Shown here: in pieces, positions 7,780 to 40,766 of the stretch
Layout: each line of letters begins with the position of its first letter
Position numbering within the stretch: position 1 is the first letter of the stretch
From: a virus
IMG/VR virus record: IMGVR_UViG_3300042368_001013
Coordinates: 27,795-91,794 of that record
Length of the DNA stretch: 64,000 bases
Direction: 5' to 3' (one strand)
Program-made: the position numbers and the translations under genes
Notes under the pieces: generated by a model
Seen by the model: the letters and a program-made list of their open reading frames with translations, nothing else
What the model was told of the DNA's origin: nothing
Databases searched by the model: none

Positions 7780-7800
7780 ATGTTTCCTTTACAGGTTTTT

Positions 7801-7828
7801 ATTATAACAGGTATTTTAGCACTAGCAA
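7801..7828 (-). promoter_or_regulatory. Sigma70-type early promoter
   Basis: TTGCTA-N16-TATAAT upstream of the AAGGA RBS of ORF 7779. Confidence 0.65.
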
Positions 7829-7839
7829 GTAACAATATT

Positions 7840-13257: not shown

Positions 13258-13285
13258 TTGACAGTGAAATTGTATGTAGTATAGT
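13258..13285 (+). promoter_or_regulatory. Sigma70-type early promoter
   Basis: TTGACA-N16-TATAGT. Confidence 0.7.
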
Positions 13286-13312
13286 ATGGCAACTTCTTAA
13301 GAAAGGAAATTT

Positions 13313-13549: not shown

Positions 13550-13570
13550 GTTAATAAGAAGGTCTGTGTG

Positions 13571-13600
13571 AAAAACCCCGCCGTTTTGGCGGGGTTTTTT
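13571..13600. terminator. Bidirectional intrinsic terminator
   Basis: AAAAACCCCGCC-GTTTT-GGCGGGGTTTTT between convergent genes. Confidence 0.9.
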
Positions 13601-14903: not shown

Positions 14904-14904
14904 A

Positions 14905-17088: not shown

Positions 17089-17113
17089 AAAAAGCCCCGC
17101 AAGGGGCTTTTTT
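17088..17113. terminator. Bidirectional intrinsic terminator
   Basis: AAAAAAGCCCC-GCAA-GGGGCTTTTTT. Confidence 0.9.
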
Positions 17114-17682
17114 TATGACCATGTAAATTTTTGTGAAGTTCTAGTCAACTCATCACCAAAATAATGCAGATCACCATTATATGTTGGTCTTGTTTCGGTA
17201 AATCCTTTTGGATCTTTTCCCTTATCCATTAGAGCCGAAACTGATTTATATAAGTTTTGTAAAGCAGGGTTTACCGTTCCATTTATTTCACTAATTACAC
17301 CTGTGAATTCTTTTTTGGTTACAAAATTAGGTTCATTTGGTTTTTCTAAAATATTTGCCGGAGTTACCGTTTTGGGTACATATGTTTCAAAAAATGGTAT
17401 TTGTTGGAGTAATCTATTAGTTGTATCTGTATCAACTGTTGTTGATGTGGTTGATCTTGGTCTTTCAAACAATTTTAAATCATTACCAAAATCAAATGGT
17501 GTATTCAAAGATTGATTTAATAATTCATTTTCGGGTAGATTTGATTCTCCCAATGATGCAACAGCACGTTCCGAATTAGAAGTAAAAACGTCAGGCTCAA
17601 TTAAATAATTCTGAACAACTTGTTCAACTTTTACATCGTCTGAATTCGAATTTATTAAATCTAGTTTTTCTTTTTCTTCCAT
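17113..17682 (-). CDS. Hypothetical protein in the tape-measure/gp29 slot
   Basis: Directly after gp26-gp51; no recognisable motif. Confidence 0.5.
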   Translation of the reverse strand: MEEKEKLDLINSNSDDVKVEQVVQNYLIEPDVFTSNSERAVASLGESNLPENELLNQSLNTPFDFGNDLKLFERPRSTTSTTVDTDTTNRLLQQIPFFETYVPKTVTPANILEKPNEPNFVTKKEFTGVISEINGTVNPALQNLYKSVSALMDKGKDPKGFTETRPTYNGDLHYFGDELTRTSQKFTWS

Positions 17683-17684
17683 TT

Positions 17685-17876
17685 TTATCTACTGTATTGT
17701 CTGTTTAAAGCCATTTCTTGTTGCATTCTTTTTTCTTCTGCCAAAAGATTAATATAAATTTCTCTTTCCCAGAATAACATATTTTCAATATCTTCTAAAG
17801 ACCATTTGTAATTATTTACCAAAGAAAAGTTTGTTTTATAGTAATCAAATAGATCTAAGAAGTTTGAAGCAATGTA
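17685..17876 (-). CDS. gp51: gp51 baseplate hub assembly protein; no own ATG, likely made by -1 frameshift from gp26
   Basis: Hand translation YIASNFLDLFDYYKTNFSLVNNYKWSLEDIENMLFWEREIYINLL...; missed by the ORF track. Confidence 0.85.
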   Translation of the reverse strand, partial: YIASNFLDLFDYYKTNFSLVNNYKWSLEDIENMLFWEREIYINLLAEEKRMQQEMALNRQYSR

Positions 17877-18529
17877 AAAAAATTTAGGGTACCAGACACC
17901 TCTCTTTCTCCATCTTTTGCTGGGAGAATTGCATATAGTTCTGGTTGATTTTTTGAAATTTTCTCAATTTCTTTTAAGAAAGAATATGGTAAATTATCAA
18001 TCAATTGTTTAAATTCATCGCTGATAAAAGTATCTAAATTATACACTTCATTTTTTACAATTATTGATGTAATGTACTTTTTAAATAAAGATAATTCATC
18101 ATTTAAATCACATTCCAATATTTTCATAATTTTTGGAGTTTTAATTTTTGCATATACACCCTCTTTAATTTGTATATTAACGTCAGTAAGTGTATTTTTT
18201 ACTTGAATGTTATCTATATTAATTTTAAAAGATTCTTCACCAATTTTAAGATTTAGTTCTTCACCAACACTCTTAGATCTAATCTTTAAATACAAGTACT
18301 CAGCATCAGCAAGACATAGATCATCTATATCAACTCCAGAACTGTTTGTTTTTAAAATGTTTACCATTGCCATCAAGCATAGTTTTTTATTTTGTTCTTT
18401 TAAAATAATTGATATATTTTTAGAATCTTTTACTTTAAATGGTACAAATTTTACAGTTTTTTGGCTAACTGGTAATACGGTTTCGTAGGTTGGGTTCAAC
18501 TCTTGAATAATATTTTTCAATTCGTTCAT
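17855..18529 (-). CDS. gp26: Baseplate hub assembly chaperone gp26
   Basis: PTYE..LP.S.K.VKF.PF.VK, D.EYLYLKIRSKSVGE, terminal G..NFF. Confidence 0.9.
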   Translation of the reverse strand: MNELKNIIQELNPTYETVLPVSQKTVKFVPFKVKDSKNISIILKEQNKKLCLMAMVNILKTNSSGVDIDDLCLADAEYLYLKIRSKSVGEELNLKIGEESFKINIDNIQVKNTLTDVNIQIKEGVYAKIKTPKIMKILECDLNDELSLFKKYITSIIVKNEVYNLDTFISDEFKQLIDNLPYSFLKEIEKISKNQPELYAILPAKDGEREVSGTLNFFTLLQTS

Positions 18530-18533
18530 AATT

Positions 18534-19148
18534 TTAAGGGGTACTTGGGGTTGGTGTTACTTCTTGTTTGAATTCTCTAAAACCAAATGTAACAGCATAT
18601 TTTAGATATTTATCGACAAATGCCATACTCATTTCAATTGGTTGTGTTTCTACAGGAAAAACTTCAAAAAAAGTTAATGTATTGTTAGTTCCACCATTAG
18701 GATTTAAAATTTCAATATTCATTGTACAGTTCTTAACAACTCTATCATAATATGGAGTTACATATGCTCCAAAATATAATGGGCTTGCGGAATTTGCTCT
18801 CGGGGATCTATAAAATACATTGAACCAATTATTAAAAAAAGTCAATAAATGTTGATCATTAGTTATTGGAAAAATTAATTGAACACCAAATCCTCCGCTT
18901 AAGATATCTTGACTGCGGGGAACAAATCTTCCTTGACCAAATCCCGATAAATTATCTTGAACCGTATTTATTGCTCTTGGACCCAATGCCATGTATTCGG
19001 CCTGCACATAACCACCGCTATCGTCCCCTAAAACTACGCCAGATGGCAAACCGCTAAAGGACACTTTAAATCTATTGGCTAATTGTAATCCATTATGGTC
19101 AGTAAAATATTGTTTTATTGATGTTATTGGATTAGTTGGTGTTGGCAT
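18534..19148 (-). CDS. Tail-tube-like baseplate protein (gp54-like)
   Basis: GL.LANRFKV, FFNNW, YYD, FEVFP..TQPIEM, VTFGFRE; synteny gp4-gp54-gp26. Confidence 0.7.
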   Translation of the reverse strand: MPTPTNPITSIKQYFTDHNGLQLANRFKVSFSGLPSGVVLGDDSGGYVQAEYMALGPRAINTVQDNLSGFGQGRFVPRSQDILSGGFGVQLIFPITNDQHLLTFFNNWFNVFYRSPRANSASPLYFGAYVTPYYDRVVKNCTMNIEILNPNGGTNNTLTFFEVFPVETQPIEMSMAFVDKYLKYAVTFGFREFKQEVTPTPSTP

Positions 19149-19560
19149 TTGAGAATATTTCTTTTTCTGTTAGTAACTTAAATTGCATATTGTTCTTTTG
19201 GCAAAACGTTTTGGCTGCATTCCATTTTGCATTATTGATAACCCAGATAATTTTTTCTTTTTTAGATGCATTTTCTTTTAAAAAAGTTTGTTTAGCTGGC
19301 TTTACTTCTATTAACCAAGTTTGTAAATTATTTCCATTATTGAATTGAACTAAAAAGTCTGGAAAATAATTATGCATTTTCTTGTCAAGAGGATTTAGAT
19401 ATGGAATAACTATTTCCTCGGATGACCATTTTGTTATATTAATATTTTCATCTAAAAATTTACACACTCTTCTTTCCCATAAGGAACGACATACAATATT
19501 GGTAGCATCTCCAATATATTTTTTTATATTTTTGGGTTTAAATATTGTTTTGTATGCCAT
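19132..19560 (-). CDS. gp4: Head completion nuclease gp4
   Basis: KY.GD..NI..RSLWER, WSSEE..IPY, YFPDF, IEVKP, NNAKW.AA. Confidence 0.95.
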   Translation of the reverse strand: MAYKTIFKPKNIKKYIGDATNIVCRSLWERRVCKFLDENINITKWSSEEIVIPYLNPLDKKMHNYFPDFLVQFNNGNNLQTWLIEVKPAKQTFLKENASKKEKIIWVINNAKWNAAKTFCQKNNMQFKLLTEKEIFSNANTN

Positions 19561-19565
19561 AAAAA

Positions 19566-19589
19566 TATTTAGTTAATTTAAACTAAATA
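19566..19589. promoter_or_regulatory. Divergent late promoter pair for gp4 and gp48 operons
   Basis: ACTAAATA on both strands. Confidence 0.7.
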
Positions 19590-19597
19590 ATAATATA

Positions 19598-20404
19598 ATG
19601 GTTTACTTACGTCAATACCCCATAGCAAGTTCAAGTTTAACTAGCGAAGTTCCATATTGGTTAGTTTTTTATGCTGCTGATTATTCATTAAGAGCAGAAA
19701 ACAGAACTCGTATAGGTATAGCCTCCAGAGCTCATTCTAAATTAGTCTTACCATTTCCAAAAGAACCTGGATATTCTTTACGCCATGAATTTGGAGAAGG
19801 AACTAATCCAGTTGGTCCAGTTCTTTCTATGGCCGCATTAAATAATTCTGGTGGAGATTTTGAACTTTTGTGGAATAGAATAATTGATCCGGCAAAATTT
19901 CAAAATGAATATATGTATGCCACTACTACATATAGAAGATTTTCTAACGTAACAGAAGCCACAATGGTTTCTGAAGCAAGAAGAGAATACAATTTTGAAT
20001 ATATTTTTGTTCCAAAATCTGCAAACGAAAGCATAGAAGTTAGAGATATTGTTGGAACATTTAGAAAATCATCATATCCTGTAGTGGTTGCAGGTTTGCC
20101 AGAAAGATCGTATCCACAATCACTTTGGACGTTAAGAGTAGCAAAAGGCACTCCAATTGGAGGTGGAGATTTAGATTTAAACTTGACTGCTGATTGGCTT
20201 GGTGAACCAATGCCATTGGTTTTAACTTCCATGGTAGTTAAATATAGTGATGCATCAGATCCCATTGTAAGGACTTTGGCAAATGGTTATTCTTCTGTAA
20301 CTCTTTTAGGTTTAACGTTTAGAGAGTTTGAAACTGGAACTTTCAAACCTGGTACAGATCAAGGTGCAATGCTACTATCAAAGTCAGAAATTATAGGTAT
20401 GTAA
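19598..20404 (+). CDS. gp48: Baseplate tail-tube cap gp48-like
   Basis: R.YNFEYIFVPKSANES.EV..I...FR; VLTSM.VKY; L.LTFREFE. Confidence 0.8.
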   Translation: MVYLRQYPIASSSLTSEVPYWLVFYAADYSLRAENRTRIGIASRAHSKLVLPFPKEPGYSLRHEFGEGTNPVGPVLSMAALNNSGGDFELLWNRIIDPAKFQNEYMYATTTYRRFSNVTEATMVSEARREYNFEYIFVPKSANESIEVRDIVGTFRKSSYPVVVAGLPERSYPQSLWTLRVAKGTPIGGGDLDLNLTADWLGEPMPLVLTSMVVKYSDASDPIVRTLANGYSSVTLLGLTFREFETGTFKPGTDQGAMLLSKSEIIGM

Positions 20405-20406
20405 TA

Positions 20407-21234
20407 ATGCATTATTCTCAAAGTTTAGGAAAAATTTTATATACGACCGAACTTGGAACTTTTAATGTTAGTGATTTAACTTCGTATTTTATTTTAGAAA
20501 ATACAAAATTAAGTGCTGCAAATGTTGACGTATCTTCAAATACTACTTTATTGGAATTATCTAATACAGTTTATTCTGATGTAAATCTTTTTTGGTATTT
20601 TTTATATGCCAATAACTCAATAAATCCATTTAATTTATTTGACACCGATACGGCAGATTTACTAAGTGAATATAGTACAAATACACAAATAAATTCAACA
20701 ACACTTAGTGACGGGTATGATGTAATAGTTCCAGAAGGATCATTAATTTTACCTTGGGTAGCCAATTCTGGTGATACTTATAGTTATGGCTCTACTGGAA
20801 ATTTTAGTCTAACTGGTGGATTTGGATTCATAAAGGAATTTAATCCATTTACAAAGGTAGCTACAATTATTCAACCAATTGGTGGTGTCACATTTGCCGT
20901 AAATCAAAAAGTAAATTATCTTGTAAATGGTGATACTTATAGTTCTATTGGATCTTATGGTGGTGAAACCAGATCAATTCAATATGTGCAAACTCAATTA
21001 GAAGCAACAAAAGAAATTAAATATGAAATTTATGGAAATTTACAAGTATTTGGTATGATGGAAGATGATTTGCCCATAACCGAAAAAACTGATAATTTTG
21101 GATTTACTGGTGCAACCAGTGCCATAAGTTATCAGCAATATGCACAAAACAAAAATACAAATATTCAATATTATTTACCATATACTTCAAAGTCGTTTCC
21201 ATTTACAAAAATTACACAAAATTATATTGTCTAA
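20407..21234 (+). CDS. gp53: Baseplate wedge gp53-like
   Basis: ELSNTVYSD..LFWYFLYAN.SINPF LysM-like motif; synteny. Confidence 0.7.
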   Translation: MHYSQSLGKILYTTELGTFNVSDLTSYFILENTKLSAANVDVSSNTTLLELSNTVYSDVNLFWYFLYANNSINPFNLFDTDTADLLSEYSTNTQINSTTLSDGYDVIVPEGSLILPWVANSGDTYSYGSTGNFSLTGGFGFIKEFNPFTKVATIIQPIGGVTFAVNQKVNYLVNGDTYSSIGSYGGETRSIQYVQTQLEATKEIKYEIYGNLQVFGMMEDDLPITEKTDNFGFTGATSAISYQQYAQNKNTNIQYYLPYTSKSFPFTKITQNYIV

Positions 21235-21237
21235 TAT

Positions 21238-23202
21238 ATGCCATACTATACACCTCTAGATTCTCCAATAAAATCAATTTTTCTTGGTGGTATTAATATA
21301 ATACCACAAAATGATCTTTGTCGTTTTGAAAAAATTGAATTTACTGAAAGCGTATTTGATTTATTTCCAAATGGTTGTTTAGTTGTAAGAGATCTGAATG
21401 ATGTTATAAGTTACGTTAACAATTTATCTAATAAAAATTTTACAATTACATATGATAATGGAAACAGCGAAACATTTTATATAAATGGAACTGTGCATTT
21501 AAATAACGCCGCATCAGAGACAGAAGAAAACTTTATTGGAATAAATTTTACAAATAAATTATTTCTTTTAAATCAAAATCTTTCTGTTACTAATTTATTA
21601 AAATCTTCTGGATTTCCACAAGTTTATAATATTGAAACTTTTTATTCTGAAATGGTAGCAAAAATAAAACAAAATTCTAATACTTCAGGCATTGATGCGC
21701 CCAAATTAACTAATTTGGGTTCAAGAAAATTTTCTAATGTAATAGCGTATCGACCAATAAATCCACTAGAAGGTAAAACTGATGAAGCCAGTGAAAATCC
21801 TATTCAGTACATGAATTATATTTCAAGCTTGGCTTGTGATTCAAATACTTCTCAACCAAGATTTTTATTTTGGACAGGATTTAATAATGATATTAATTTA
21901 AAATATTTTAGTGAAACTTTTGCCAATGAAACTGTATATGGTTATTATGGAGTATATCAACAAGATATTCCAAGTTTGATATCAGCGGGTGCGTTAAGAA
22001 AGAAAATTTACGTATTAACAACATCCCCTGCATATCAATATTTAAATAGACAGTATTATTATACAAGAAAAACACCAAAACTTTTAAATAAATCATCATC
22101 ATCTACAACATCTGATGAGACTATTCTAATGAATCATCAGTTTTTGGATGATGGTACAAAGTATGATATTGAATTTGTAGTCGAATCAGGGGTCGTAAAT
22201 AACTTATCGGGCACTATTGGATTAAGCTCTTTAGAATATACAAATCATTATGGATACTATAACAAAAATGATACATTTACTCCATATGGCAATTCTACTT
22301 TATTGGGAATGGAATATGGCGTAAGTGATGTTTACGCAAATAAAGATATTATGGGTGTGGTTGCTCCATATCCATTTATTGATAATCCAGAGATGTGGAA
22401 AAATATGTGGGATATGACTCCCGTACATCCTAATATAGGCACATCAATAACTGGATCTATTACAGCTACAAATACTAATTTACAAAAAGTTTTTCAAGTT
22501 AGAGAATCATCAAAAACTTCAACTTCTAAATTAGAAAAAATAAAAGAAATAGAATTACAAAATTTTGTTTATTATGTTCTTTGTTGTTTAAAGGAACCTG
22601 TAGATCAAATAGAACAAGAAGAGACTTTTTTTGCTTGTCTTACAGGATGGCAACTTGATACAACCAATCCAAAACTTGGTTTGAATGGTGAGCCTTTGAC
22701 ATATAGATATACTTGGAAACGAATTGGTGTAAATTTACTGTTTAATGACATTAATTTTTTTAATTTTACAAATCCAGAATTATCTCCTTGGGAACAAATG
22801 GATGAAGGTTCTGACCCACAAGATATTGAAACATGGGCTATAAATATAAATGAAAGAAAAAATTCTCTGTTAGGTGGCGATGTTTTAGGGGCATATTATG
22901 GTCCTGGTTGGTATACACAAAATTTAACAGAACCTGTTTTTAAAGATTCGGTTACTTATAGACCAATTGGCAATAGGGGTGGAAATTTAGAAGAATTCGT
23001 AGATGGTACTACCTGCCGTCATATTGTTATGATGAAAAAAATACCATTTATTCAAATTGTTTTAAACGCTAAAAATTATGAAGATGTAATTGGTATTGAT
23101 CAGCAAAAGTTATTAGAATATATTGAAGCTTCAAAAGGAAAGTATCTATATTGCTTTGAACTATCTAACGTTACAGATGGTAAGTGCAATCCTATACAAT
23201 AA
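21238..23202 (+). CDS. Baseplate hub gp27-like, N-terminal part with long extension
   Basis: IEFTESVF..FPNG.LVVRD and later FLFW....INLK; position after gp53. Confidence 0.55.
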   Translation: MPYYTPLDSPIKSIFLGGINIIPQNDLCRFEKIEFTESVFDLFPNGCLVVRDLNDVISYVNNLSNKNFTITYDNGNSETFYINGTVHLNNAASETEENFIGINFTNKLFLLNQNLSVTNLLKSSGFPQVYNIETFYSEMVAKIKQNSNTSGIDAPKLTNLGSRKFSNVIAYRPINPLEGKTDEASENPIQYMNYISSLACDSNTSQPRFLFWTGFNNDINLKYFSETFANETVYGYYGVYQQDIPSLISAGALRKKIYVLTTSPAYQYLNRQYYYTRKTPKLLNKSSSSTTSDETILMNHQFLDDGTKYDIEFVVESGVVNNLSGTIGLSSLEYTNHYGYYNKNDTFTPYGNSTLLGMEYGVSDVYANKDIMGVVAPYPFIDNPEMWKNMWDMTPVHPNIGTSITGSITATNTNLQKVFQVRESSKTSTSKLEKIKEIELQNFVYYVLCCLKEPVDQIEQEETFFACLTGWQLDTTNPKLGLNGEPLTYRYTWKRIGVNLLFNDINFFNFTNPELSPWEQMDEGSDPQDIETWAININERKNSLLGGDVLGAYYGPGWYTQNLTEPVFKDSVTYRPIGNRGGNLEEFVDGTTCRHIVMMKKIPFIQIVLNAKNYEDVIGIDQQKLLEYIEASKGKYLYCFELSNVTDGKCNPIQ

Positions 23203-23210
23203 GGAAATTT

Positions 23211-23936
23211 ATGGCTGATTATATACCACAAGCTAAACAGATTAAAACAGTAAGTGCTGGTGAGGTAAGATATCTATTATATTCTCCCGGTTCACGGGAT
23301 ACTTATGAATGCGCAAATCCTTTTATTACTCGTGGACTAACTCAATCAGCCAGCACCTATGATGATTGTAAAAATAATTCATTATATGGAGCAAAGGTAA
23401 AAGCAGTTGCAGATGCTGTTGCTGGTGGAGAATTTATTCCTAATTGGTTTGGACCTCCATCTTTGACTGACGATACGCCTTCTTCAATTGATAGCGTTCT
23501 TATTGGAGATCTTTCTCCCGAGTGCGGTAGTATTGAAACCAAACTTGGTGCAGATTGGAAGGGTTGTTTTTGGGCTGCGCCTGATGCTTTGTTCAGCTGC
23601 GAATGCCCAGAAGTTGGTTCTAAGTACTTAGAGTACCTAAAACTAAGATTAAATGTGGCAACATTCTGGAATACTCCAGTAGAAACACCTATTAAAAGAA
23701 AAAGATTTTTAGATGCCATTACATATGGTCCAAAAATTACAATAGTAGTTGCTCCTGATCTCAGACTAAGACCTGGTGTTGTTATTGATGTTGCTGCAAA
23801 TGCAATAAGCGGTTATAATACAAGTACATCAAATTCAGTAATAAGCAAAAAATATTATGTAATTTCTGTAAAAAGCACTCTTACAAATTCTGGTGTTGGA
23901 GAAACTGCAGTTACTGCTGTAGAACTTCTATACTAA
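23211..23936 (+). CDS. Protein ending in a gp27/late-control-D C-terminal-like domain; Cys-rich N-half
   Basis: ITIVVAPDLRLRPGVVIDV...KKYYVISVKSTL; AAGGA RBS before 23211. Confidence 0.55.
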   Translation: MADYIPQAKQIKTVSAGEVRYLLYSPGSRDTYECANPFITRGLTQSASTYDDCKNNSLYGAKVKAVADAVAGGEFIPNWFGPPSLTDDTPSSIDSVLIGDLSPECGSIETKLGADWKGCFWAAPDALFSCECPEVGSKYLEYLKLRLNVATFWNTPVETPIKRKRFLDAITYGPKITIVVAPDLRLRPGVVIDVAANAISGYNTSTSNSVISKKYYVISVKSTLTNSGVGETAVTAVELLY

Positions 23937-23944
23937 ATATTACG

Positions 23945-24328
23945 ATGATAAATTTAAAAGATTTTAATATCTTAGGATTAAAAATTAGCTCCAGCGCAGA
24001 AAAAAAAGATATTGCGATGGTTACGGGTTTTAACGAATATATTCAAAAAATAGAAAATATTTGTAAAACACAAAAAGGTGAATTGCCATCGGACCCTTAT
24101 GTGGGTTCTGATTACTATAATCTAATTTTTAATCCTTCTGGTATTCAAAATTTAATTGAAACAGATCTTGAAAATTATATACAATATGCTATCAAAGACA
24201 TTAACAATATAAATGTTAGAATTAAATATTTTAATGATCAAAAAGTGATATTTGCTATAAAATTTTCTGCAGACACTTATTTAAAAAATCAACTGATGGA
24301 ATGCACAATTGAGGTCCCACTGCAATGA
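23945..24328 (+). CDS. gp25: Baseplate wedge gp25
   Basis: I.NI..TQKGE.P.DP.VGS...LIF. Confidence 0.85.
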   Translation: MINLKDFNILGLKISSSAEKKDIAMVTGFNEYIQKIENICKTQKGELPSDPYVGSDYYNLIFNPSGIQNLIETDLENYIQYAIKDINNINVRIKYFNDQKVIFAIKFSADTYLKNQLMECTIEVPLQ

Positions 24329-25395
24329 GCTTAAACTTTAAAAATTTAGATGTTGCTTCTCTTGATTATAATGAAATTATAACATCATTAAAAAACTTTT
24401 TAAAGAGCGAACCTACTTTAAAAGATTTGGATTATGATAGTTCAGCCAGTGCAGTTAATATGTTATTGAACATATTGGCAACAGCAACGGCTTATAATGG
24501 TGTATATGCTCAGTTAGGTTATAAAGAATCTTTTGTTAGTACTGCTACTCTTTTACCTTCACTTGTTGGCTTGGCTTCTAATTCTTCTATACTTTTGGAA
24601 GTTAAAAAATCAGCATCTACAACCAGAAATATTATTACTTATGGCGCTCTGAGCGCATATACTCCGTTTTATGCAACTAGCACCAGAGGAACAAATTTAT
24701 TGTTTTTTAACATAGAAGATGTTCCGGCAGCAACAACAAGCACAATAACTTTATATTGCGGATCCGAAGTTGTTCAATATGGTAGCTGGGATTTTAATAG
24801 TCAATCAATGACCTTGCCATTAACAGTAGATCCAAATACCATTACTATGGCATCAACTGATGTAGATGGAAATACTATTTCTTGGGAAAGAGTAGATAAA
24901 TCAAATCCAGCCTCAACAACAACTGGTTATTATTTTACAGTTTTAAATACAGTTAATGGTTACTTGGTAACTTCTAATTTACCAGAATCGTTTGTTTTAA
25001 CAAATGATTATACTGTTTACTGCAAAGCCGTTATTTCAAATGGCGCAGAGGGAAACGAAGCTACTTTAGCCACAAATAGCAGCTATGCTGGATTCTTAAC
25101 AATTTCTACACCAACAGGCGGTTATGATTCTCTTTCCACAACAAATGCAAAATCAAAAATTAATTTTTCAGCAAGAGCACAACATCGTTGTGTTACTTTG
25201 ACAGATTTTAAAAATGCAATATTGGCTTCTAGTATTGTAACTACATCAGAAGATCAAATAACTGTTGTCAATGCAGACCAACCAAGTACTATAAAAATTT
25301 ATGTAAATGGTATCAGTGAATCTGAAAGCAATGATCTTATTACATACTTGAGTGACATATCAGTAGCTGGTATCAACTTAATATATTCACAATAA
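24325..25395 (+). CDS. gp6: Baseplate wedge gp6 (short, 356 aa)
   Basis: LDYNEI..SLKNFLK.....KDLDY..S...LL.ILA; AQHRCVT..DF. Confidence 0.85.
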   Translation: MSLNFKNLDVASLDYNEIITSLKNFLKSEPTLKDLDYDSSASAVNMLLNILATATAYNGVYAQLGYKESFVSTATLLPSLVGLASNSSILLEVKKSASTTRNIITYGALSAYTPFYATSTRGTNLLFFNIEDVPAATTSTITLYCGSEVVQYGSWDFNSQSMTLPLTVDPNTITMASTDVDGNTISWERVDKSNPASTTTGYYFTVLNTVNGYLVTSNLPESFVLTNDYTVYCKAVISNGAEGNEATLATNSSYAGFLTISTPTGGYDSLSTTNAKSKINFSARAQHRCVTLTDFKNAILASSIVTTSEDQITVVNADQPSTIKIYVNGISESESNDLITYLSDISVAGINLIYSQ

Positions 25396-25396
25396 A

Positions 25397-26020
25397 ATGC
25401 TTTTACTATTTAATAAAATTCCAGTAACGCTTGAGGTAAAACTCAAAAAAATGGTAGAAAATGCCAAAAGCACTTTAGGATCAGATTTTTATAATTTGGC
25501 CGGAAGTCCTTGGTTTGGCGATAAATTGACTGTAAAATCTTTATTTCCAAACTGGATTTATAAAGAATCTATAAAAGATCCTTCTAATGTATTAATTGTT
25601 AAAATTATTCAATCATATTTAAGATGGCTTTTTAGTGAAAAATATGGATACGGTGGTAAAATTGATTGGGAAAATATTCAATGCCCATGGACAATAAATG
25701 ATAAATTTTTAGAAGGTTTATCTGATAAATATTTTCCATATGAAGATTTTTCTGAAGGTTCAGTTTTAAGAGATTTACTTCCAAACATTAAAAAATTTGC
25801 TATTAATTGTGATGAAAATTATTATAATATGAAAGGAAGTTGTATGGCTGTAAAATATCTTTTAACAACTTTAATAAATCTTCCGATAGATCAATGTGAT
25901 GTACAAACTGGAAGCCCAGGTTTTATGATAGTCCGGGCAAATGTTCCAGAAAAATATAAACCATTTTTAAATAGATCAGTATATCCAGCAGGAACTTATA
26001 TCTTATACGAAACTCCATGA
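25397..26020 (+). CDS. gp7-like wedge protein (short, 207 aa)
   Basis: FP.W...IIQSYL.WL, YYNMKGS..AVKYL, terminal YPAG (cf. HPAG); follows gp6. Confidence 0.6.
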   Translation: MLLLFNKIPVTLEVKLKKMVENAKSTLGSDFYNLAGSPWFGDKLTVKSLFPNWIYKESIKDPSNVLIVKIIQSYLRWLFSEKYGYGGKIDWENIQCPWTINDKFLEGLSDKYFPYEDFSEGSVLRDLLPNIKKFAINCDENYYNMKGSCMAVKYLLTTLINLPIDQCDVQTGSPGFMIVRANVPEKYKPFLNRSVYPAGTYILYETP

Positions 26021-26460
26021 TAAGTAAAATAATGATGTTTGCGATGTCTATCGCATCACGTGGAAAAGATAATAATAAAATAAATGATGATGTAAAGAAA
26101 CTGAGATATGTTTCTTGTTTTGGAATAGGTAATCCAAAACCATGCTCTAATCTTAAAAAAAGCGACAAATCAAATTTTTATTACTGTGGTGGATGTGGTT
26201 GTGGTGACCATAGCCACACATGGCTTTTAAGAGAACATGGAACATATTCTAAGCTAGATTATCCATATTTAAACTGCCCTTTAAAAATGCCAGGGTTTTC
26301 AAACTATGATCCAAACTCTCCAGAACAAGATTTGCATAGAAAAAAACAAATTGAAAATTTGCCACCTGAGATTGTTCAAAGAGTAAATCTTACAGTATCT
26401 GTAAATAAACAAAAACAAGATATGTTTGATGCTATAAATAAAATTATTGAAAATTCATAA
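26017..26460 (+). CDS. Cys-rich protein, distant paralog of 2685..3389
   Basis: CGGCGC...KLDYPYLNCP. Confidence 0.65.
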   Translation: MISKIMMFAMSIASRGKDNNKINDDVKKLRYVSCFGIGNPKPCSNLKKSDKSNFYYCGGCGCGDHSHTWLLREHGTYSKLDYPYLNCPLKMPGFSNYDPNSPEQDLHRKKQIENLPPEIVQRVNLTVSVNKQKQDMFDAINKIIENS

Positions 26461-26468
26461 ATAATTTT

Positions 26469-27299
26469 ATGGCGGCAACAACTAGACAACAATTTATCGA
26501 CTATTGTTTTAGAAACTTGGGTGCTCCTGTAATACAGGTAAATATAGATCCACAACAAGCACAGGATCGTTTAGATGAAGCATTAGAGTATATGTTTGAA
26601 AGACACTTTGATTTTAATCAAAGGGCTTTGTTTTTATACACTATGACTTCTGATGATATTAACAGAAGATATTTTGATACCACTACATTTGGTAGTGCTG
26701 TTGGTGCCCAACCAAGATATGACCCATCTACTGGTATTACTGGTGATTGGCCACAAGCAACTGACATTAGAACTATTACAAAAGTTTATACACCATCAGA
26801 TGTTTCTGGGTCTTATATGTTTGATTTGAGATATCAATTAACTTTATTTGATTTCTTTGGTTTGTATTTCAATCAAGGAGCTTTGAATAGTGGACCAATG
26901 GCATCCTATATGGAATCCATGAGTTATTTAAAAATGGTTAATGATGTATTTAATTATCCACCTGCCTATACATACACCAGAACAACTGATCGTCTTACAT
27001 TAGATCTAGATTGGACTCGATTGGTTCCTGGATCATATCTTTTGGTTGAATCCTATGTTCAAATTGATCCAAATCAATATCAAAAAGTTTGGCAAGATAG
27101 AGTATTTAAAAAGTATTACACAGCATTATTAAAGAAACAATGGGCACAAAATTTAATGAAGTTTGCTGGGGTGCCATTGCCTGGTGGCGCCCAATTAAAT
27201 TCTGCAGCCATAATGGCTGAAGCATTGAATGAACTAAATCAAATCGAAATAACGCTAACAAAAACACAAGAATTGCCACCAGATCCAATGATAGGATAA
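26469..27299 (+). CDS. gp13: Neck protein gp13
   Basis: TRQQFIDYC.R.LGAPVI.VN; KKY.TAL.KKQW.QNL.KF.GV.LPGG. Confidence 0.95.
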   Translation: MAATTRQQFIDYCFRNLGAPVIQVNIDPQQAQDRLDEALEYMFERHFDFNQRALFLYTMTSDDINRRYFDTTTFGSAVGAQPRYDPSTGITGDWPQATDIRTITKVYTPSDVSGSYMFDLRYQLTLFDFFGLYFNQGALNSGPMASYMESMSYLKMVNDVFNYPPAYTYTRTTDRLTLDLDWTRLVPGSYLLVESYVQIDPNQYQKVWQDRVFKKYYTALLKKQWAQNLMKFAGVPLPGGAQLNSAAIMAEALNELNQIEITLTKTQELPPDPMIG

Positions 27300-27302
27300 C
27301 AT

Positions 27303-27953
27303 TTGAAAAATCCGTATTTTCAAAATTATGAGCCAGAACAAGATTTAGTAGAAGGAATAACAATTGAAATTATTCAAGCTACTGGAGTTGACTGCTATTA
27401 TATTCCTAGAGACTATCTTTCAATAGATAAAATATTTGGAGAAGATCCTGGTTCCTACTTTGACAATGCATATGTTTTAGAAATGTATTTACAATCATTT
27501 AAAGGGTTTGAAGGAAACGATGTTATCACTCAGTTTGGTTTGGAAATCAAAGATAAAGTAAATTTAGTTTTTGCTAGAAAAAGATTTAAACAAGAAGTTA
27601 CAAATAAAAATTCAGCACTAACGAGACCTCGTGAAGGAGATTTGATTTATTTTCCACCATCAAAGTCATTGTTTGAAATAAACTTTGTAGAACATGAAAA
27701 TCCATTTTATCCACTGGGAAGATTGTATTCATATTTTATAACAGCTGAACTCTTTACTTACAGTTACGAAAAACTTTCTACTTCTATAAATGCCGTTGAT
27801 CAGCTTGTAAATAATACTAGAGGATTCTCTGGAAGTACAATAATTCCATTGAATAACGGACTTGGGACTACTGCTGGCGTAAATGATGTTCTTCAAACTG
27901 AAGCTGCGGGGTACACATTTGATCCGAATAATCCATTTATTGATTGCGAGTAA
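27303..27953 (+). CDS. gp14: Neck protein gp14
   Basis: NPYF..EQDL.E....E.I, YIPR, RPREGDLIYFP, FEI.FVEHE.PFY.LG. Confidence 0.95.
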   Translation: MKNPYFQNYEPEQDLVEGITIEIIQATGVDCYYIPRDYLSIDKIFGEDPGSYFDNAYVLEMYLQSFKGFEGNDVITQFGLEIKDKVNLVFARKRFKQEVTNKNSALTRPREGDLIYFPPSKSLFEINFVEHENPFYPLGRLYSYFITAELFTYSYEKLSTSINAVDQLVNNTRGFSGSTIIPLNNGLGTTAGVNDVLQTEAAGYTFDPNNPFIDCE

Positions 27954-27959
27954 TAAACT

Positions 27960-28631
27960 ATGTTTGATCAATTTTATAACAAAAGCTTAAGAAAACTTGT
28001 AGTCGGATTTGGAACATTATTTAATAATATTAATGTTAGTCACCAAAACCCAGATAATCCAAATGATCCTTTGGAAATACGAGTTCCAATAACTTATGCA
28101 CCCCAAGAAAAATTTATTAGAAGGTTGTTGGAACCATCATCTATTACTGACACCACTAGAATTGAAAATCAACTTCCAAGATTAAGTTATATAATGACAA
28201 CTGTGGTTCCTGATTCTACACGAAGAAGATCAAAATTTATGCCTTTATTTTCTTCAAACCAATCAGGAGGTCAATGTTCCTCTACAGGAAATGTTATTAA
28301 TGAACAAGTTCCTGTAAATGTTGGTTTTAGTTTATATGTTTATACACGACATATTGATGATACCTTGCAGATTATAGAACAAATAATTCCATATTTCAAT
28401 CCAGATCATATCGTTGAATTGGATTTAAATGATGCTCAGACAAATGTAAGAATACCAATAATAATGACCAGCAGTAATATATCTGAGAGATTTGATGGAG
28501 ATTTTGGTTCTAGAAGAGTAAATATTTCTTCTATATCTTTTATAGCTAAGAGTTACATATATGGAAAGGTTACGCCATCAGTTAGTACAATTACTTCTAC
28601 TGATTTGGATTTTGATTTTAATAATGCTTAA
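27960..28631 (+). CDS. gp15: Tail sheath stabiliser/terminator gp15
   Basis: FYN.S.RK.VVGFGTLFNNI, VPI.YAP.EKF, QIIEQIIPYFNP. Confidence 0.95.
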   Translation: MFDQFYNKSLRKLVVGFGTLFNNINVSHQNPDNPNDPLEIRVPITYAPQEKFIRRLLEPSSITDTTRIENQLPRLSYIMTTVVPDSTRRRSKFMPLFSSNQSGGQCSSTGNVINEQVPVNVGFSLYVYTRHIDDTLQIIEQIIPYFNPDHIVELDLNDAQTNVRIPIIMTSSNISERFDGDFGSRRVNISSISFIAKSYIYGKVTPSVSTITSTDLDFDFNNA

Positions 28632-29070
28632 TAAAAATTTAACAAACTTTTTTAATTTGCCGGATGAAAAAGAATCTAAAGTTTCTAAAGATGTTGCGGG
28701 GGGGACATTTGATTTAGGAAATTTTCAAAAAGATTATGAATCTGTTCAATTAAATTTAAAAGATTTAATACAAAATGGAAATGTTGCTTTAGAAAGTGCC
28801 CTTAAAGTTGCAACAGAATCAGATTCCCCAAGAGCTTTTGAGGTAGTTGCAATACTCTTAAAAACAATGGCAGATTTGAATAATAATGTTTTGGATGTTC
28901 ATAAAAAAGCAAAAGCAACAACAGCAGATATAAAAACGTCAATTAAACAAACCAACAATGCAGTTTTTGTTGGATCAACCAAAGATCTTCAAAATCTGTT
29001 AAATAAAGAAAGAAGCACTGAAAAAGAAGTGATTGAAGCTGAGGTTGTAAAAGATGGCTCAAAGCAATAA
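28624..29070 (+). CDS. gp16: Terminase small subunit
   Basis: DYE, A.ESDSPRAFEVVA, NNAVFVGST.DLQ. Confidence 0.92.
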   Translation: MLNKNLTNFFNLPDEKESKVSKDVAGGTFDLGNFQKDYESVQLNLKDLIQNGNVALESALKVATESDSPRAFEVVAILLKTMADLNNNVLDVHKKAKATTADIKTSIKQTNNAVFVGSTKDLQNLLNKERSTEKEVIEAEVVKDGSKQ

Positions 29071-30697
29071 CCAAGGTTATAGAAATAATCCAAAACTAAA
29101 GCATCCCGGTATTCAGTTAAATTATACTGAAGAAGAATTAAAAGAATACGTAAAATGTTCAAAAGATCCGGTTTATTTTTGTAGTAAATATGTAAAAGTT
29201 AAAACTCTAGACAGAGGAGTTATGCCCTTTGAACTATACGATTATCAGCAACGATTTGTAAAGACAATTCATGAAAATAGATTTACTATTTCAAAATGGC
29301 CTCGCCAATCAGGTAAATCTACATCAGTTATTGGTTACATTACACATTATGTGACCTTTAATCAGTCAGTAAGCTGTGCAATTCTGGCTAACAAGTTAAA
29401 AACTGCAAAAGATGAATTATTTGCTAAACTTCAATTAGCATATGAGAACTTACCACATTTTCTTCAACAGGGCGTGGTAGAATGGAACAAGACAAGCTTT
29501 AAACTGGAAAATGGGTCTAGAGTGGTCTGCGACGCAACATCGTCCTCGGCCATTCGTGGTGGCTCCTATAACCTTCTACTTTTGGACGAATACGCCTTCT
29601 TGCCTTCCCATATAGCAGAAGAATTTTATTCATCAACATACCCAACAATTTCAGCGGGTTTGACCACAAAACTTATTATTGTATCCACTCCAAATGGAAT
29701 GAATCATTTTCATAAACTTTGGATTGATGCAAATAGAGCAGAAGGGCATAAATTAAAAAATAAATTTGTGCCTATTGAGGTATCTTGGAGAGATGTCCCT
29801 ATAACTCCCGGTGGCCCACGCAGAGATGACGTATGGGCAGCTGAACAGATAGCAAATACAAGCGAAGAACAATTTCAACAAGAATATGGTTGTAGCTTTC
29901 TTGGTTCATCTAATACTTTAATTTCTTCAACAAAATTAAATGTATTGGCTCCAGAAGAATTTTTGTCTGAAGATAAAGAAGGCATAAGAACATTTAGAGA
30001 ACCAAATAAAGATGATGTGTATTTTTTAATGGCTGACGTTTCTCGTGGCCAAGGGTCCGATTATTCAGCAATAACAGTAATAAATGGTAGCAAAACACCA
30101 TATGAAGTTGTGGCTACATATAGAAACAATACAGTTAGTCCATTTCATTTCCCAACAATTATAAAAAATATTGCCGAAAAATATAATGGTGCTTATGTAT
30201 TGGTTGAAACTAATGACATTGGTGGTCAAGTAGCAAATATTTTATATAATGATCTTGAATATGAAAATCTTTTAATGACCATCATTAAAGGAAGAAAGGG
30301 GCAAATTTTATCTCAAGGATTTGCAAGCAACCGTAGTGAATTTGGACTTAGAACCACTGCCCAAACAAAAAAACTAGGTTGTTCTATTTTAAAAAGGTTA
30401 ATCGAAGAAGATAAAATTTTAATAAATGACGATAGGGTCATACAAGAATTAATGACTTTTGTGTCCAAATCTAATACTTTTAAAGCTGATGACGGGCACA
30501 ATGATGATCTAGTAATGACTTTGGTGTTCTTTGCTTGGCTTTGTAGACAAGAATATTTTCCAGATTTAATTGAATCAGGAAAATTAAATTTTGAAGAAGC
30601 AAAAAATGCAGAAGAAGATAATACTTTGTTTATGTTAAACCCACTTGACGACGAAGATAAATACTCCGATGGAGAGGTTGTATGGTATCCTGCATAA
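29054..30697 (+). CDS. gp17: Terminase large subunit
   Basis: PRQSGKST Walker A, LLDEYAF, STPNGMNHF, DVSRG.G.DYSA, HNDDLVM. Confidence 0.98.
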   Translation: MAQSNNQGYRNNPKLKHPGIQLNYTEEELKEYVKCSKDPVYFCSKYVKVKTLDRGVMPFELYDYQQRFVKTIHENRFTISKWPRQSGKSTSVIGYITHYVTFNQSVSCAILANKLKTAKDELFAKLQLAYENLPHFLQQGVVEWNKTSFKLENGSRVVCDATSSSAIRGGSYNLLLLDEYAFLPSHIAEEFYSSTYPTISAGLTTKLIIVSTPNGMNHFHKLWIDANRAEGHKLKNKFVPIEVSWRDVPITPGGPRRDDVWAAEQIANTSEEQFQQEYGCSFLGSSNTLISSTKLNVLAPEEFLSEDKEGIRTFREPNKDDVYFLMADVSRGQGSDYSAITVINGSKTPYEVVATYRNNTVSPFHFPTIIKNIAEKYNGAYVLVETNDIGGQVANILYNDLEYENLLMTIIKGRKGQILSQGFASNRSEFGLRTTAQTKKLGCSILKRLIEEDKILINDDRVIQELMTFVSKSNTFKADDGHNDDLVMTLVFFAWLCRQEYFPDLIESGKLNFEEAKNAEEDNTLFMLNPLDDEDKYSDGEVVWYPA

Positions 30698-30729
30698 AAT
30701 TCTAAATATTTTTATTACAAGGTAAACGA

Positions 30730-32031
30730 ATGCCAACATTAAATTCTTTTATTTCCCCTTCAATCTTTAGCACCGAAAGTACTACAAATCCTTTATATGC
30801 AGGTATGATCGCAGGAGCAACTTATGCGATCCCAACATTTACTGGTGCCAGCGGTGCCGCCTCAAACGATCCTGGTGGCCTTTATGGCTGGTTGATGTAT
30901 AGCAGAACCCAATTGGCAAACCCAGTTCGTGGTACCACTAGCGAAACATATATTGAATATTCAGACTATAATAGCTTTATAAACGATTTAAATCTTTTAA
31001 GTGGTATAACTTATTGCTTAGTCTCAAGGACAACCGAAGGCGGTACACAAGGTTTCTTTTCATATGCTGGAACAAAAGTTACTCCAAGAACCAATGGATA
31101 TGACTTTTTACATGCTTTAAATTATCTTTCTTACGGTGGTAGCCTTGTTATTGCTGGTACAACCACTGGACTTAAAAATTATTTAAATGCCAACTCCTAC
31201 AAGTTAGATATTTTAATGGGACAAACAGGCAATACTGCTACTGTTCCATTTGTAAGAGATAATGATTATATCTTTGGAGTATTTGCATCAAGCAGTGATG
31301 GTGCGGGATTTACAGCAATTAACTATGATTCGTTAATGGGGCCTGCATTTGTTCCATTTAGCCAAGGTGCTACCGCATCCGATAGAATCTTTAATGTAGG
31401 GGCACAAAGTTTTAAAGCTCCGTTTGCAACAGATAGTTTAATTTCTAATACAACTCTTGAATACACAATTTCATCGGTATCAGATGTTGCTGGTGCATTT
31501 ACCAGATCTAAGAATACAAATAGTTTGCCATTAACTGTAGCTGGATCTAATTTTTCTACACCACTAAACACAAAAATTAATAACATTGTTGATTGGAGTG
31601 ATGAAGCTACCAAAAATATTTACAAGAAAAACAGAGTTAATTTTTATACAAAAATTGATACTAATACTTTTACCAATTATTTCTTAGGATCTGATTTGGT
31701 TGGTGCTACTGCAGGTGCAGGTGCCACCTATACTTCATCTGAAAGAGTTGGTCCTGCATATCTACAAAATTATATTCAAAATAATGTAAATGACATTTTG
31801 CTCAAATATATTTTTGCTATAAACAACTCTACAACCAGATCATCGGTAAGCACAGAAATAGGATCATTTATTCTAAGTATTTCGCAATACATTGATCCTA
31901 CATTTACTCAAATTATATGTGATACCACAAATAATACTGATAATTCTGCTACATTGAGTGCAGATGTAACAGTAAAACCAATTCTTTCGACAACCACTTA
32001 TACAGTGACTGCATCAGTATCTAATACCTAA
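30730..32031 (+). CDS. gp18: Tail sheath protein gp18, divergent and short (433 aa)
   Basis: Position between gp17 and gp19; NYLSYGGSL; IFAINN..TR, IICDTTNNT, VTVKP. Confidence 0.75.
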   Translation: MPTLNSFISPSIFSTESTTNPLYAGMIAGATYAIPTFTGASGAASNDPGGLYGWLMYSRTQLANPVRGTTSETYIEYSDYNSFINDLNLLSGITYCLVSRTTEGGTQGFFSYAGTKVTPRTNGYDFLHALNYLSYGGSLVIAGTTTGLKNYLNANSYKLDILMGQTGNTATVPFVRDNDYIFGVFASSSDGAGFTAINYDSLMGPAFVPFSQGATASDRIFNVGAQSFKAPFATDSLISNTTLEYTISSVSDVAGAFTRSKNTNSLPLTVAGSNFSTPLNTKINNIVDWSDEATKNIYKKNRVNFYTKIDTNTFTNYFLGSDLVGATAGAGATYTSSERVGPAYLQNYIQNNVNDILLKYIFAINNSTTRSSVSTEIGSFILSISQYIDPTFTQIICDTTNNTDNSATLSADVTVKPILSTTTYTVTASVSNT

Positions 32032-32034
32032 TAA

Positions 32035-32607
32035 ATGTCATCTAACAATTCAATATCCAATTTTAAAAATGCATTTGGCGGTGGTACTAGAGCCAATAGG
32101 TTTGAAGTGACCGGAATTTTTCCAACTGTTGATGATTTTGGTGTTGGGCCTGTATCAGTTGGGGCTAATGAAACAAAATTTAAAATTTTTGCTACAAGTA
32201 TGCCTAAAGCAGAAGTCGGAACAATTCAAGTTCCATATAGAGGTAGACTTTTAAATTTTGCTGGAGACAGATCATATGGCAACTGGGCAGTTTCAATATA
32301 TGATGACAATAATACTAATAATCTATGGAAAGCTTTTAATACTTGGAAAGAATTATTAGACGGCCATTTAACACATCAAGTTGCAAATAGTGATTTTGAT
32401 TATAGTACTTTACAAAGAGATTGGACTGTAAAACAACTTCCTTTAAATGGACAACCAAGCGGAACTACTCCATTAAGACAAATAACTTTAAAAAATTGTT
32501 GGCCAAGCCAGATCAGTAGCATGGATTTTGATATGGCAAAAGCAGATCAAACAATATTTAATGTCGTATTGACATTTGATTGGTATTCAATAGATATAGG
32601 TATCTGA
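32035..32607 (+). CDS. gp19: Tail tube protein, copy 1
   Basis: GGG.RANRFEV, VPYRGR...AGDR.Y..W. Confidence 0.9.
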   Translation: MSSNNSISNFKNAFGGGTRANRFEVTGIFPTVDDFGVGPVSVGANETKFKIFATSMPKAEVGTIQVPYRGRLLNFAGDRSYGNWAVSIYDDNNTNNLWKAFNTWKELLDGHLTHQVANSDFDYSTLQRDWTVKQLPLNGQPSGTTPLRQITLKNCWPSQISSMDFDMAKADQTIFNVVLTFDWYSIDIGI

Positions 32608-32609
32608 AC

Positions 32610-33164
32610 ATGACAATACACATTTCTGATTTTAAAAATGCATTTTCGGGGGGAGCAAGACAAAATAGATTTGTTGTAACTGGAAATTTTCCAGGAGATG
32701 AACAAAGTGGTGGATCTGTATCATCATTTCATATAAGAGCCACACAAATTCCATCATTGTCAACTTTAACTTTAGAATACAATTATTTTGGTAGAAAAGG
32801 TTATTATCCAGGAGAAAAACAATATTCTGCTTGGAGTGTTGCGATTATAGATGATACACCAGAATTATATAATAGCTGGAAAAAATTTCATAATTGGCAA
32901 AATCAAATAAACGCACATACTACTAATATTTCTGATTTTCCCATAAATTATAAACAAGATGGCTGGACTGTTCAGCAACTAAACTTAAATGGTGAGGCAG
33001 ATCCTTCATTAAAACAATTTAAGATGTATGGAGTTTGGCCGAGAAGTATCATGGATATGCCTCTTAATATGGCCAACCCAAACACAATAAATCAATTTAC
33101 TGTTGTTTTTATTTACGATTATATAGAACTATATGCAGGAACTAATAAGATAACTGGCACTTAA
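32610..33164 (+). CDS. gp19: Tail tube protein, copy 2 (divergent)
   Basis: ISDFKNAFSGGARQNRF.V, YFGRK...PGE..Y..W, GVWP, F.YDY. Confidence 0.8.
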   Translation: MTIHISDFKNAFSGGARQNRFVVTGNFPGDEQSGGSVSSFHIRATQIPSLSTLTLEYNYFGRKGYYPGEKQYSAWSVAIIDDTPELYNSWKKFHNWQNQINAHTTNISDFPINYKQDGWTVQQLNLNGEADPSLKQFKMYGVWPRSIMDMPLNMANPNTINQFTVVFIYDYIELYAGTNKITGT

Positions 33165-35158: not shown

Positions 35159-35192
35159 TCACAGTCTTTAACAATAATAAATAATAATAACC

Positions 35193-35684: not shown

Positions 35685-35702
35685 AGATAAGAAAGATAAT
35701 AA

Positions 35703-40217: not shown

Positions 40218-40766
40218 ATGACAACAAATCCGTGCCAAGATAATACTAATAATCTTTACGCTAACTATTTTAGTTTTAAAATTCAGCGCGGAACAGATCA
40301 ATTAGAATTGATGGTCCAGAAAGCCAATCTTCCCGGATTAACTGTTCCTGATCAATCACAGCCTACAATTTTTGGTACAACAATACCAGTACCAACAATG
40401 ACAGTTCAATATGAACCTCTTGTTGTAGAATTTTTGGTAGATAACAATTTAAATAACTGGAAAACCATTTATTCTTGGATGCGTGATATAACAAACATAC
40501 AAGATGCTTATAATTACGATTTAGCTTACCAAAATTGGCATTATAGTGCATCTTTAATTTTACACCCTACAGTAAATTGTGATACACCAAATCCAGTTCT
40601 TACTGTAAAATTTGCTCACGTAATTCCCACCCGATTAAGTGGACTAGTATTTCAATCAGATGCAGCCGATGCAATCATCATAAAAGCATCAGCTACATTT
40701 AAATTTTCTTATTATGATCTTAATCCAGATGCTCCGGGTGCTCTTGGATATCCATACGGATCTTAA
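40218..40766 (+). CDS. gp3: Tail tube terminator gp3
   Basis: F.FKI.R, QKANLPG, YEPL.V.FLVD..L.NW..IY.WM, ATFKFSYY. Confidence 0.9.
   Translation: MTTNPCQDNTNNLYANYFSFKIQRGTDQLELMVQKANLPGLTVPDQSQPTIFGTTIPVPTMTVQYEPLVVEFLVDNNLNNWKTIYSWMRDITNIQDAYNYDLAYQNWHYSASLILHPTVNCDTPNPVLTVKFAHVIPTRLSGLVFQSDAADAIIIKASATFKFSYYDLNPDAPGALGYPYGS

Follow-up and report, generated by a model that had tools for sequence, protein, structure and literature searches.

Background

T4-like phages are usually regarded as bearing the most elaborate baseplate known. Other contractile systems, namely the R-type pyocins, the antifeeding prophage (AFP), the Photorhabdus virulence cassettes (PVCs) and phage P2, are driven by sheath subunits of a class of about 430 aa, and the baseplate genes of phages Mu and P2, with their own set of protein sizes, follow the orders gp44-gp48 and V-W-J-I, respectively. 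Here we describe a tail and baseplate module at positions 17113-33164 of a window of 64,000 nucleotides (positions 27,795 to 91,794 of the IMG/VR virus record IMGVR_UViG_3300042368_001013, the whole stretch of DNA that was analysed; coordinates in the contig refer to this window). The record is a 91.8-kb linear metagenomic contig whose completeness is put at ~50% by CheckV. We hypothesize that the locus encodes the core of the tail and baseplate in a large lineage of T4-like phages that is aquatic, uncultured and related to Kyanoviridae. The lineage would retain the T4 set of head, neck and packaging genes and build a structurally minimal contractile tail; we consider this interpretation probable.

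The closest head proteins are found in Kyanoviridae and pelagimyophages (S-SSM7, S-PRM1, Melnitz), which share with the contig the arrangement of gp4, gp26-gp51 and gp48-gp53. The head genes of the contig are full length, as had been noted before, and gp20 and gp23 are ~48% and ~54% identical, respectively, to Kyanoviridae proteins. The tail genes differ: the sheath of Melnitz has 663 aa and the gp5 of S-SSM7 1008 aa, unlike the 433-aa sheath and the unrecognised gp5 of the contig. VrlC and gp8 are reported to be common to all 35 genomes compared in the description of the pelagimyophages (PMC7029224); neither was recognised in the module.

Results and discussion

Gene content and conservation of the module

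By comparison with PHROG and Pfam families we identified in the module gp4, gp48, gp53 (weakly), gp25, gp6, gp13-gp17, the sheath (by its C-terminus only) and the tube genes, while five open reading frames (ORFs) of 189, 654, 250, 207 and 147 aa have no family match (Table 1). Counting genes outside the module, the contig shares with T4 homologues of gp3, gp4, gp6, gp13-gp20, gp25, gp48 and gp51/26, together with a weak gp53; genes 13 to 20 stand in the same order in both, and the C-terminal region of the sheath, the tube and the terminator are homologous. In contrast to T4, the contig has no recognisable gp5, gp5.4 or gp8-gp12, and it has two gp19 paralogues. An earlier note on this DNA, made from the letters and their translations, had drawn attention to the small size of several products, and the lengths it gave were confirmed: 433 aa for the sheath, 356 aa for gp6, 207 aa for the gp7-like protein and 189 aa for the ORF after gp51, against 659, 660, 1032 and 590 aa for gp18, gp6, gp7 and gp29 in the T4 record. 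The hub, conversely, is longer than T4 gp27 (654 against 391 aa) and adjoins gp53. The operon given in that note (gp48, 53, 27-like, 25, 6, 7-like, Cys protein, 13) contains the genes as listed and leaves out a conserved 250-aa ORF between the gp27-like gene and gp25.

Since the sequence comes from one linear metagenomic record only, the small genes might be products of decay or of faulty assembly of one contig. The same genes recur, with the same sizes and order and with intact frames, in dozens of contigs of independent origin, with identities of 30-90%; the hub family alone is found in 158 IMG/VR loci, and gene order and sizes in the module are nearly invariant across all related loci examined. 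The layout is therefore not due to chance, and we regard decay or misassembly as next to impossible. Three relatives of 126-137 kb (G001, G002 and G003), 70-76% complete, were fetched in full; completeness across the relatives as a whole is 58-76%. No tblastn match to the sheath, the hub or a 315-aa ORF outside the module was found in 50,697 deposited phage records.

Table 1. Features of the module and of the sequences surrounding it, by window position
Feature	Position	Strand	Evidence
Gly-rich, Cys-rich protein, 1219 aa; candidate fibre or adhesin (outside module)	3407..7066	-	sequence
Free-standing lysozyme-domain protein, 230 aa (outside module)	7780..8472	+	phrog_7 E 1.3e-9, phrog_13211; T4 gp5 E 8e-6
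Pair of Gly/Thr/Asn-rich ORFs, 315 and 434 aa; candidate fibre or adhesin	13599-15852	-	conserved; beside gp32
ORF in the slot after gp51, 189 aa	17113..17682	-	no PHROG or Pfam match
Start-less gp51-like frame	17685..17963	-	stop to stop; overlaps the end of the upstream gene
Baseplate hub assembly protein, 224 aa; cyanophage 'gp26', N-terminal part of T4 gp51	17855..18529	-	phrog_150 E 1.6e-25; S-SSM7 gp26 E 1.9e-17
Tube-like baseplate protein in gp54 position, 204 aa	18534..19148	-	phrog_45 E 2.5e-6; T4 gp54 belongs to phrog_45
gp4 head completion protein	19132..19560	-	phrog_218 E 7.6e-50; T4 gp4 E 4e-23
gp48-like tail tube cap, 268 aa	19598..20404	+	phrog_230 E 4e-8
gp53-like wedge protein, 275 aa	20407..21234	+	phrog_232 E 0.0019; PF11246 E 0.017, under the curated cut-off; position kept in relatives
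Predicted baseplate hub, 654 aa	21238..23202	+	AF2 model, Foldseek, VIA, BFVD
Cys-rich protein, putatively hub/spike-associated, 250 aa	23184..23936	+	hhalign, phrog_350
gp25 wedge/sheath initiator, 127 aa	23945..24328	+	phrog_261/120/43; T4 gp25 E 4e-5
gp6-like wedge protein, 356 aa	24325..25395	+	phrog_219, PF21379, tblastn
Putative gp7-core wedge protein, P2 gpI/Mu gp48 size class, 207 aa	25397..26020	+	ESM Atlas neighbours
Cys protein, 147 aa	26017..26460	+	family alignment
gp13, gp14 (neck), gp15 (tail terminator)	26469..28631	+	phrog_211, phrog_679/460, phrog_227; T4 gp15 E 1.4e-25
gp16, gp17 terminase subunits	28561..30697	+	phrog_445, phrog_2
Compact contractile tail sheath (predicted), 433 aa	30730..32031	+	profile, AF2 model, Foldseek/VIA
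Two gp19-like tail tube paralogues, 190 and 194 aa	32035..33164	+	phrog_45 E 3e-30 and 4e-32; T4 gp19 E ~1e-11 for both
gp3 tail tube terminator (outside module)	40218..40766	+	T4 gp3 E 8e-11; phrog_45

A compact sheath and a duplicated tube

The sheath of the contig is ~226 aa shorter than T4 gp18. In a large protein collection its family comprises at least 145 clusters, all of about 430 aa, and the 120 of them that were listed span 377-449 aa. Recognition by PHROG and Pfam is confined to the last 90 residues (phrog_10581, E 7.6e-7), one member of the family carries PF17482, and a profile built from 59 members matches residues 463-643 of T4 gp18 (E 3e-13); in sequence the protein is closest to T4 gp18 and not to the pyocin, AFP or PVC sheaths. 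Structure prediction, which the earlier note had proposed as a check, yielded an AlphaFold (AF2) model (predicted local distance difference test, pLDDT, 92.5; predicted template modelling score, pTM, 0.90) in which the core fold of a sheath is complete, down to the N- and C-terminal arms by which subunits are joined. Residues 1-421 of the model superimpose on residues 13-634 of a T4-type sheath (VIA-align Z 24.8, 313 residues aligned). The PVC, AFP and pyocin R2 sheaths, of 349-385 aa, are matched from end to end (302-308 residues, Z 22.6-24.8), model residues 1-421 aligning to residues 14-341 of the PVC and AFP sheaths (Z ~24). Foldseek also pairs the model with known contractile sheaths, and Z values from Foldseek and VIA together range from 20 to 25.

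From the model, the 433-aa protein is predicted to be a complete contractile-sheath core without the surface domains of T4, and the ~226 residues that it lacks relative to gp18 are taken to be those domains. The tail would then contract like those of other systems with a compact sheath. The suggestion of a very short, possibly weakly contractile or non-contractile tail found no support in the tests that we ran: the description of the tail as miniaturised is right for the sizes of the proteins and for the simple wedge, while the length of a sheath subunit carries no information on the length of the tail. The compact sheaths of R-type pyocins, AFP and PVC resemble that of the contig in fold; those particles have no heads, unlike the phage to which the contig belongs.

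The gene list of the earlier note needs correction downstream of the sheath, where two gp19-like tube genes follow. Their products are 31-37% identical to each other, and both are kept in every relative. T4 gp3 shares phrog_45 with gp19 and gp54, and the pair might thus have been gp19 and gp3. We rejected this assignment, as the gp3 orthologue is a separate gene outside the module; both genes that follow the sheath are therefore gp19 paralogues and represent a true duplication of the tube. AFP and PVC likewise carry tube paralogues. The set of tube-related proteins thus consists of the two gp19 paralogues, a gp54-like protein, gp48 and gp3, together with the gp15 terminator.

A wedge of minimal size

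The gp6-like protein aligns over its full length with the first ~380 positions of T4-type gp6: it matches positions 5-382 of the 598 of phrog_219 (E 2.4e-20), scores 32.5 bits against PF21379, the Gp6-like N-terminal helical domain (cut-off 27), and is covered over residues 15-350 by a tblastn match to gp6 of Acinetobacter phage 133. For the 207-aa ORF we found no match to the PDB or to T4 gp7 in profile and hhalign comparisons, and no match to a hidden Markov model (HMM). Its nearest clusters in the ESM Atlas carry PF23786 (Baseplate_wedge), PF09684 (Tail_P2_I), PF11041 (Phage_Wedge1) and PF10076 (Phage_Mu_Gp48), with Atlas feature scores of 0.90-0.93 and TM values of 0.45-0.62 for those with PF23786, PF09684 and PF10076, which supports its tentative assignment as a gp7-core wedge protein. 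By analogy, the wedge, made up of gp25, the 356-aa gp6, the gp7-like protein of 207 aa and, on a weak match, gp53, appears to be sized like the minimal wedge of P2 and Mu, and the core of the baseplate would be of the simple P2/Mu type inside a T4-like genome. The order of the hub, the 250-aa ORF, gp25, gp6 and the gp7-like gene is also that of Mu gp44-gp48 and P2 V-W-J-I, and the model of the hub matches Mu gp44. The rest of the contig differs from P2 and Mu in being T4-like, and no tape measure gene lies upstream of its hub.

A proposed two-gene hub and spike centre

The 654-aa protein has 56 homologues, nearly all of 593-705 aa and without any Pfam domain, and a profile of the family retrieved nothing useful from the PDB. 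In its AF2 model (pLDDT 72.6), the region from residue 1 to approximately 266-394 adopts the fold of gp27, Mu gp44 and VgrG. Foldseek matched it to T4 gp27 (1k28, 2z6b), Mu gp44 (1wru) and VgrG, and VIA aligned residues 2-394 with gp27 of a T4-like Klebsiella phage (Z 11.3). The tandem tube-like β-barrel domains of the gp27, gpD and Mu gp44 hubs are thus predicted in the single-chain model. Matches in BFVD comprise gp27-type hubs and uncharacterised proteins of 400-470 aa from many T4-like phages. The gene that had been called gp27-like would therefore encode a protein that does have a hub fold. The C-terminal domain (residues ~460-654) is modelled confidently and received no assignment.

The 250-aa ORF that lies between this gene and gp25 has 93 relatives, which share four nearly invariant Cys residues and a C-terminal motif, 'GD..RPG..I ... 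SGxWxV..I.H'. Its C-terminal ~70 residues align with the C-terminal end of a 470-aa protein of S-SSM7 (hhalign probability 82%, E 1e-5). The S-SSM7 protein is a member of phrog_350, whose members in Kyanoviridae have 431-470 aa, and it adjoins gp5 in S-SSM7; Melnitz has it as well. Positions 357-421 of phrog_350 match the orthologues of the 250-aa protein in G001 and G002. From these profile comparisons, the C-terminus of the 250-aa protein is predicted to be homologous to the C-terminal module of the hub-like phrog_350 protein of Kyanoviridae. In S-PRM1 this family is represented by an open frame of 431 aa; to judge from its length, this is apparently the BFVD entry of 429 aa with a match to the hub fold. 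Between the 654-aa family and the 470-aa protein of S-SSM7 there is no sequence signal by hhalign, and the link is through structure only. The profile of the 250-aa family gave nothing useful against the PDB, and at the sequence level the protein has no gpV/gp45-type OB domain or β-helix.

We propose with moderate confidence that the 654-aa hub and the 250-aa protein form the central hub and spike complex. No ORF of the module matches gp5, PAAR or gp8 in PHROG or Pfam, in agreement with the earlier note, and no ORF of the locus matches PHROG gp5, including its C-terminal β-helix. A gp5-type lysozyme domain is present in the window in a separate gene (230 aa, Table 1), and the 250-aa protein and this lysozyme may together stand in for T4 gp5.

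The 189-aa ORF and the length of the tail

Both ends of the 189-aa ORF are conserved, and its middle is variable and rich in Ser and Thr. No more than 8 homologues, of 120-189 aa, could be detected, and the ORFs in the same slot in relatives have 144-202 aa. The earlier note had placed it in the slot of the tape measure, and if it is one, the tail would be ~20-30 nm long, perhaps weakly contractile, under a head of T4 size. The ORF does come last in the hub-assembly operon, in the place of genes 27-28-29 of T4; conserved termini around a middle of variable length might be expected of a ruler anchored at both ends; and a screen of the contig and of the translations of three relatives of 126-137 kb yielded no other candidate. 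However, position is the sole basis of the label. In a crude propensity scan the fraction of helix-prone windows was 0.01, against 0.30 in T4 gp29, and hhalign gave no similarity of the family to gp29 (probability 0.2%), to gp28 (<1%) or to the 565- and 595-aa proteins that follow gp51 in S-SSM7. A contractile tail of 28 nm would, moreover, reach too short a distance on contraction to traverse the envelope of a Gram-negative cell, and the relatives are no more than 58-76% complete. The authors of the pelagimyophage genomes were also unable to identify a tape measure, in pelagimyophages or in cyanomyophages (PMC7029224), which suggests that such failure is usual in the group. We therefore regard it as very improbable that the 189-aa protein is the tape measure.

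By position and size the ORF could equally be the counterpart of gp28, which has 177 aa in T4. The 189-aa protein would then be a distal subunit or assembly factor of the hub, and the ruler would be an unannotated protein encoded elsewhere. In favour of this explanation, the gene order is that of T4 genes 51-27-28-29 apart from a relocated gp27, the range of 144-202 aa is near the size of gp28, and Ala/Glu/Lys-rich, helical, Cys-poor proteins of 472-509 aa occur in regions of the relatives that the contig lacks (G001, 118667-120196; G002, 35068-37982). On the other hand, hhalign finds no gp28 signal, and none of the helical proteins matches gp29. They share N-terminal modules with unrelated paralogues, as capsid-targeted internal proteins would sooner than a ruler; a place inside the head would be more likely for them than a role as tape measure. 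We consider the gp28 explanation possible, though rather unlikely. Our preferred reading is of a minimal contractile tail in which the 189-aa protein, rather than being a ruler, would be a rapidly evolving factor of hub assembly or of the distal hub.

The search for a tape measure consisted of a crude scan for helix and hydrophobicity of all ORFs of at least 250 aa in four genomes, which yielded only doubtful leads, of a search with phrog_1283 (gp29), which gave no match in the contig and four relatives, and of phmmer comparisons with gp29, which also gave none. A Lys/Glu-rich protein of 786 aa, which ends, by eye, in an apparent HNH-type motif, was set aside.

Several points weigh against our interpretation. 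The parallel with Mu and P2 draws on background statements about their gene order and the sizes of their proteins; the model of the hub is only moderately confident and its C-terminal domain unassigned; and for the 250-aa and 207-aa proteins the evidence behind the assignment is weak, being of the profile or language-model kind. The HMM searches that the earlier note had proposed found no Pfam match to the gp5 OB domain (PF06714), to PAAR (PF05488, E≤1) or to gp8 (PF09215) in five records, namely the contig and four relatives of 117-137 kb, as its reading of the locus had predicted; this is a weak negative, since the search with PF17482 also missed a proven sheath. Finally, neither the gp29 searches nor the helix scan revealed a tape measure in the contig or in the three relatives that are 70-76% complete. 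A more radical proposal would be one in which the clade builds a contractile tail without a canonical long tape measure, its length being set by the 144-202-aa protein after gp51, with an unusually short tail, or independently of a ruler, and in which the puncturing centre is a split hub of 654 and 250 aa that replaces gp27, gp5 and PAAR. We consider that proposal improbable and favour a minimal contractile tail whose fibres and length-determining protein would be encoded outside the module, in a region that lies partly beyond the end of the contig.

Fibre candidates and other genes outside the module

The earlier note had listed no fibre genes in the locus. In the three relatives fetched in full, large ORFs start directly after the homologue of the terminal gene of the contig (a gp62 homologue), and in G002, which is annotated, some of them encode collagen-like tail-fibre proteins (654-1408 aa) or virion structural proteins. 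The fibre cluster of the relatives thus starts right where the half-complete contig ends. Giant ORFs are also encoded by the relatives, one of 3079 aa in G002 (L126:104-9343), which has no PHROG match, and one of 2467 aa in G001 (7856-15259). Single-sequence PDB searches of large ORFs of relatives that had no assignment returned nothing.

Within the window, the 1219-aa ORF has a Gly-rich N-terminal part and many Cys residues, and it adjoins two conserved small ORFs and the lysozyme gene. In G003 its position is taken by an orthologue of 890 aa with 30% identity to it; at that position G001 and G002 have ORFs of 1093-1285 aa with no BLAST match to it. It is likely a fibre or adhesin. Another candidate on the contig is a 679-aa ORF with RCC1 repeats, which has homologues of 897-1076 aa between gp14 and gp15 in several relatives. 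The conserved pair of 315- and 434-aa ORFs has no match in PHROG or, in a single-sequence search, in the PDB. The 434-aa ORF diverges fast, as a receptor-binding protein would. The 315-aa ORF was considered as a β-helix of the gp5 type and rejected, since it has no lag-8 periodicity, unlike the C-terminus of T4 gp5.

Of the remaining genes of the module, the 224-aa 'gp26' matches only positions 12-235 of the 282 of phrog_150, a family that T4 gp51 covers end to end, and S-SSM7 gp51 matches small ORFs of relatives that are orthologous to the start-less frame beside it. The 147-aa protein has six invariant Cys residues and a conserved block, 'YYCGGCGCGD..HTWL..KLDYP.L.CP.KMPGFSNYDPN'; it matches no PHROG or Pfam family, a search with PAAR (PF05488) was negative, and in the relatives examined its gene always stands directly after the gp7-like gene and is usually followed by gp13. 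Downstream of the module, a long run of sugar-nucleotide and glycosyltransferase genes (43502-63657; GDP-mannose dehydratase, epimerases, fucosyltransferases, GT2, GT11, GT25, aminotransferase) precedes gp46/47 and the clamp loader and is partly intermixed with them. A Pfam survey of the contig record found no DNA polymerase, gp41, primase or UvsX.

Conclusions

If our interpretation is correct, T4-type machinery for head, neck and packaging is paired, in a lineage that is widespread and uncultured, with the minimal kind of sheath and wedge known elsewhere from P2, Mu, pyocins and PVCs. The two hub proteins, and the tape measure that was not found, would be well-defined objects for cryo-electron microscopy or virion proteomics of an isolated member. 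The lineage would represent a natural test of which parts of the T4 tail can be dispensed with, and it would also illustrate how the rate of evolution differs between the modules of head and tail.

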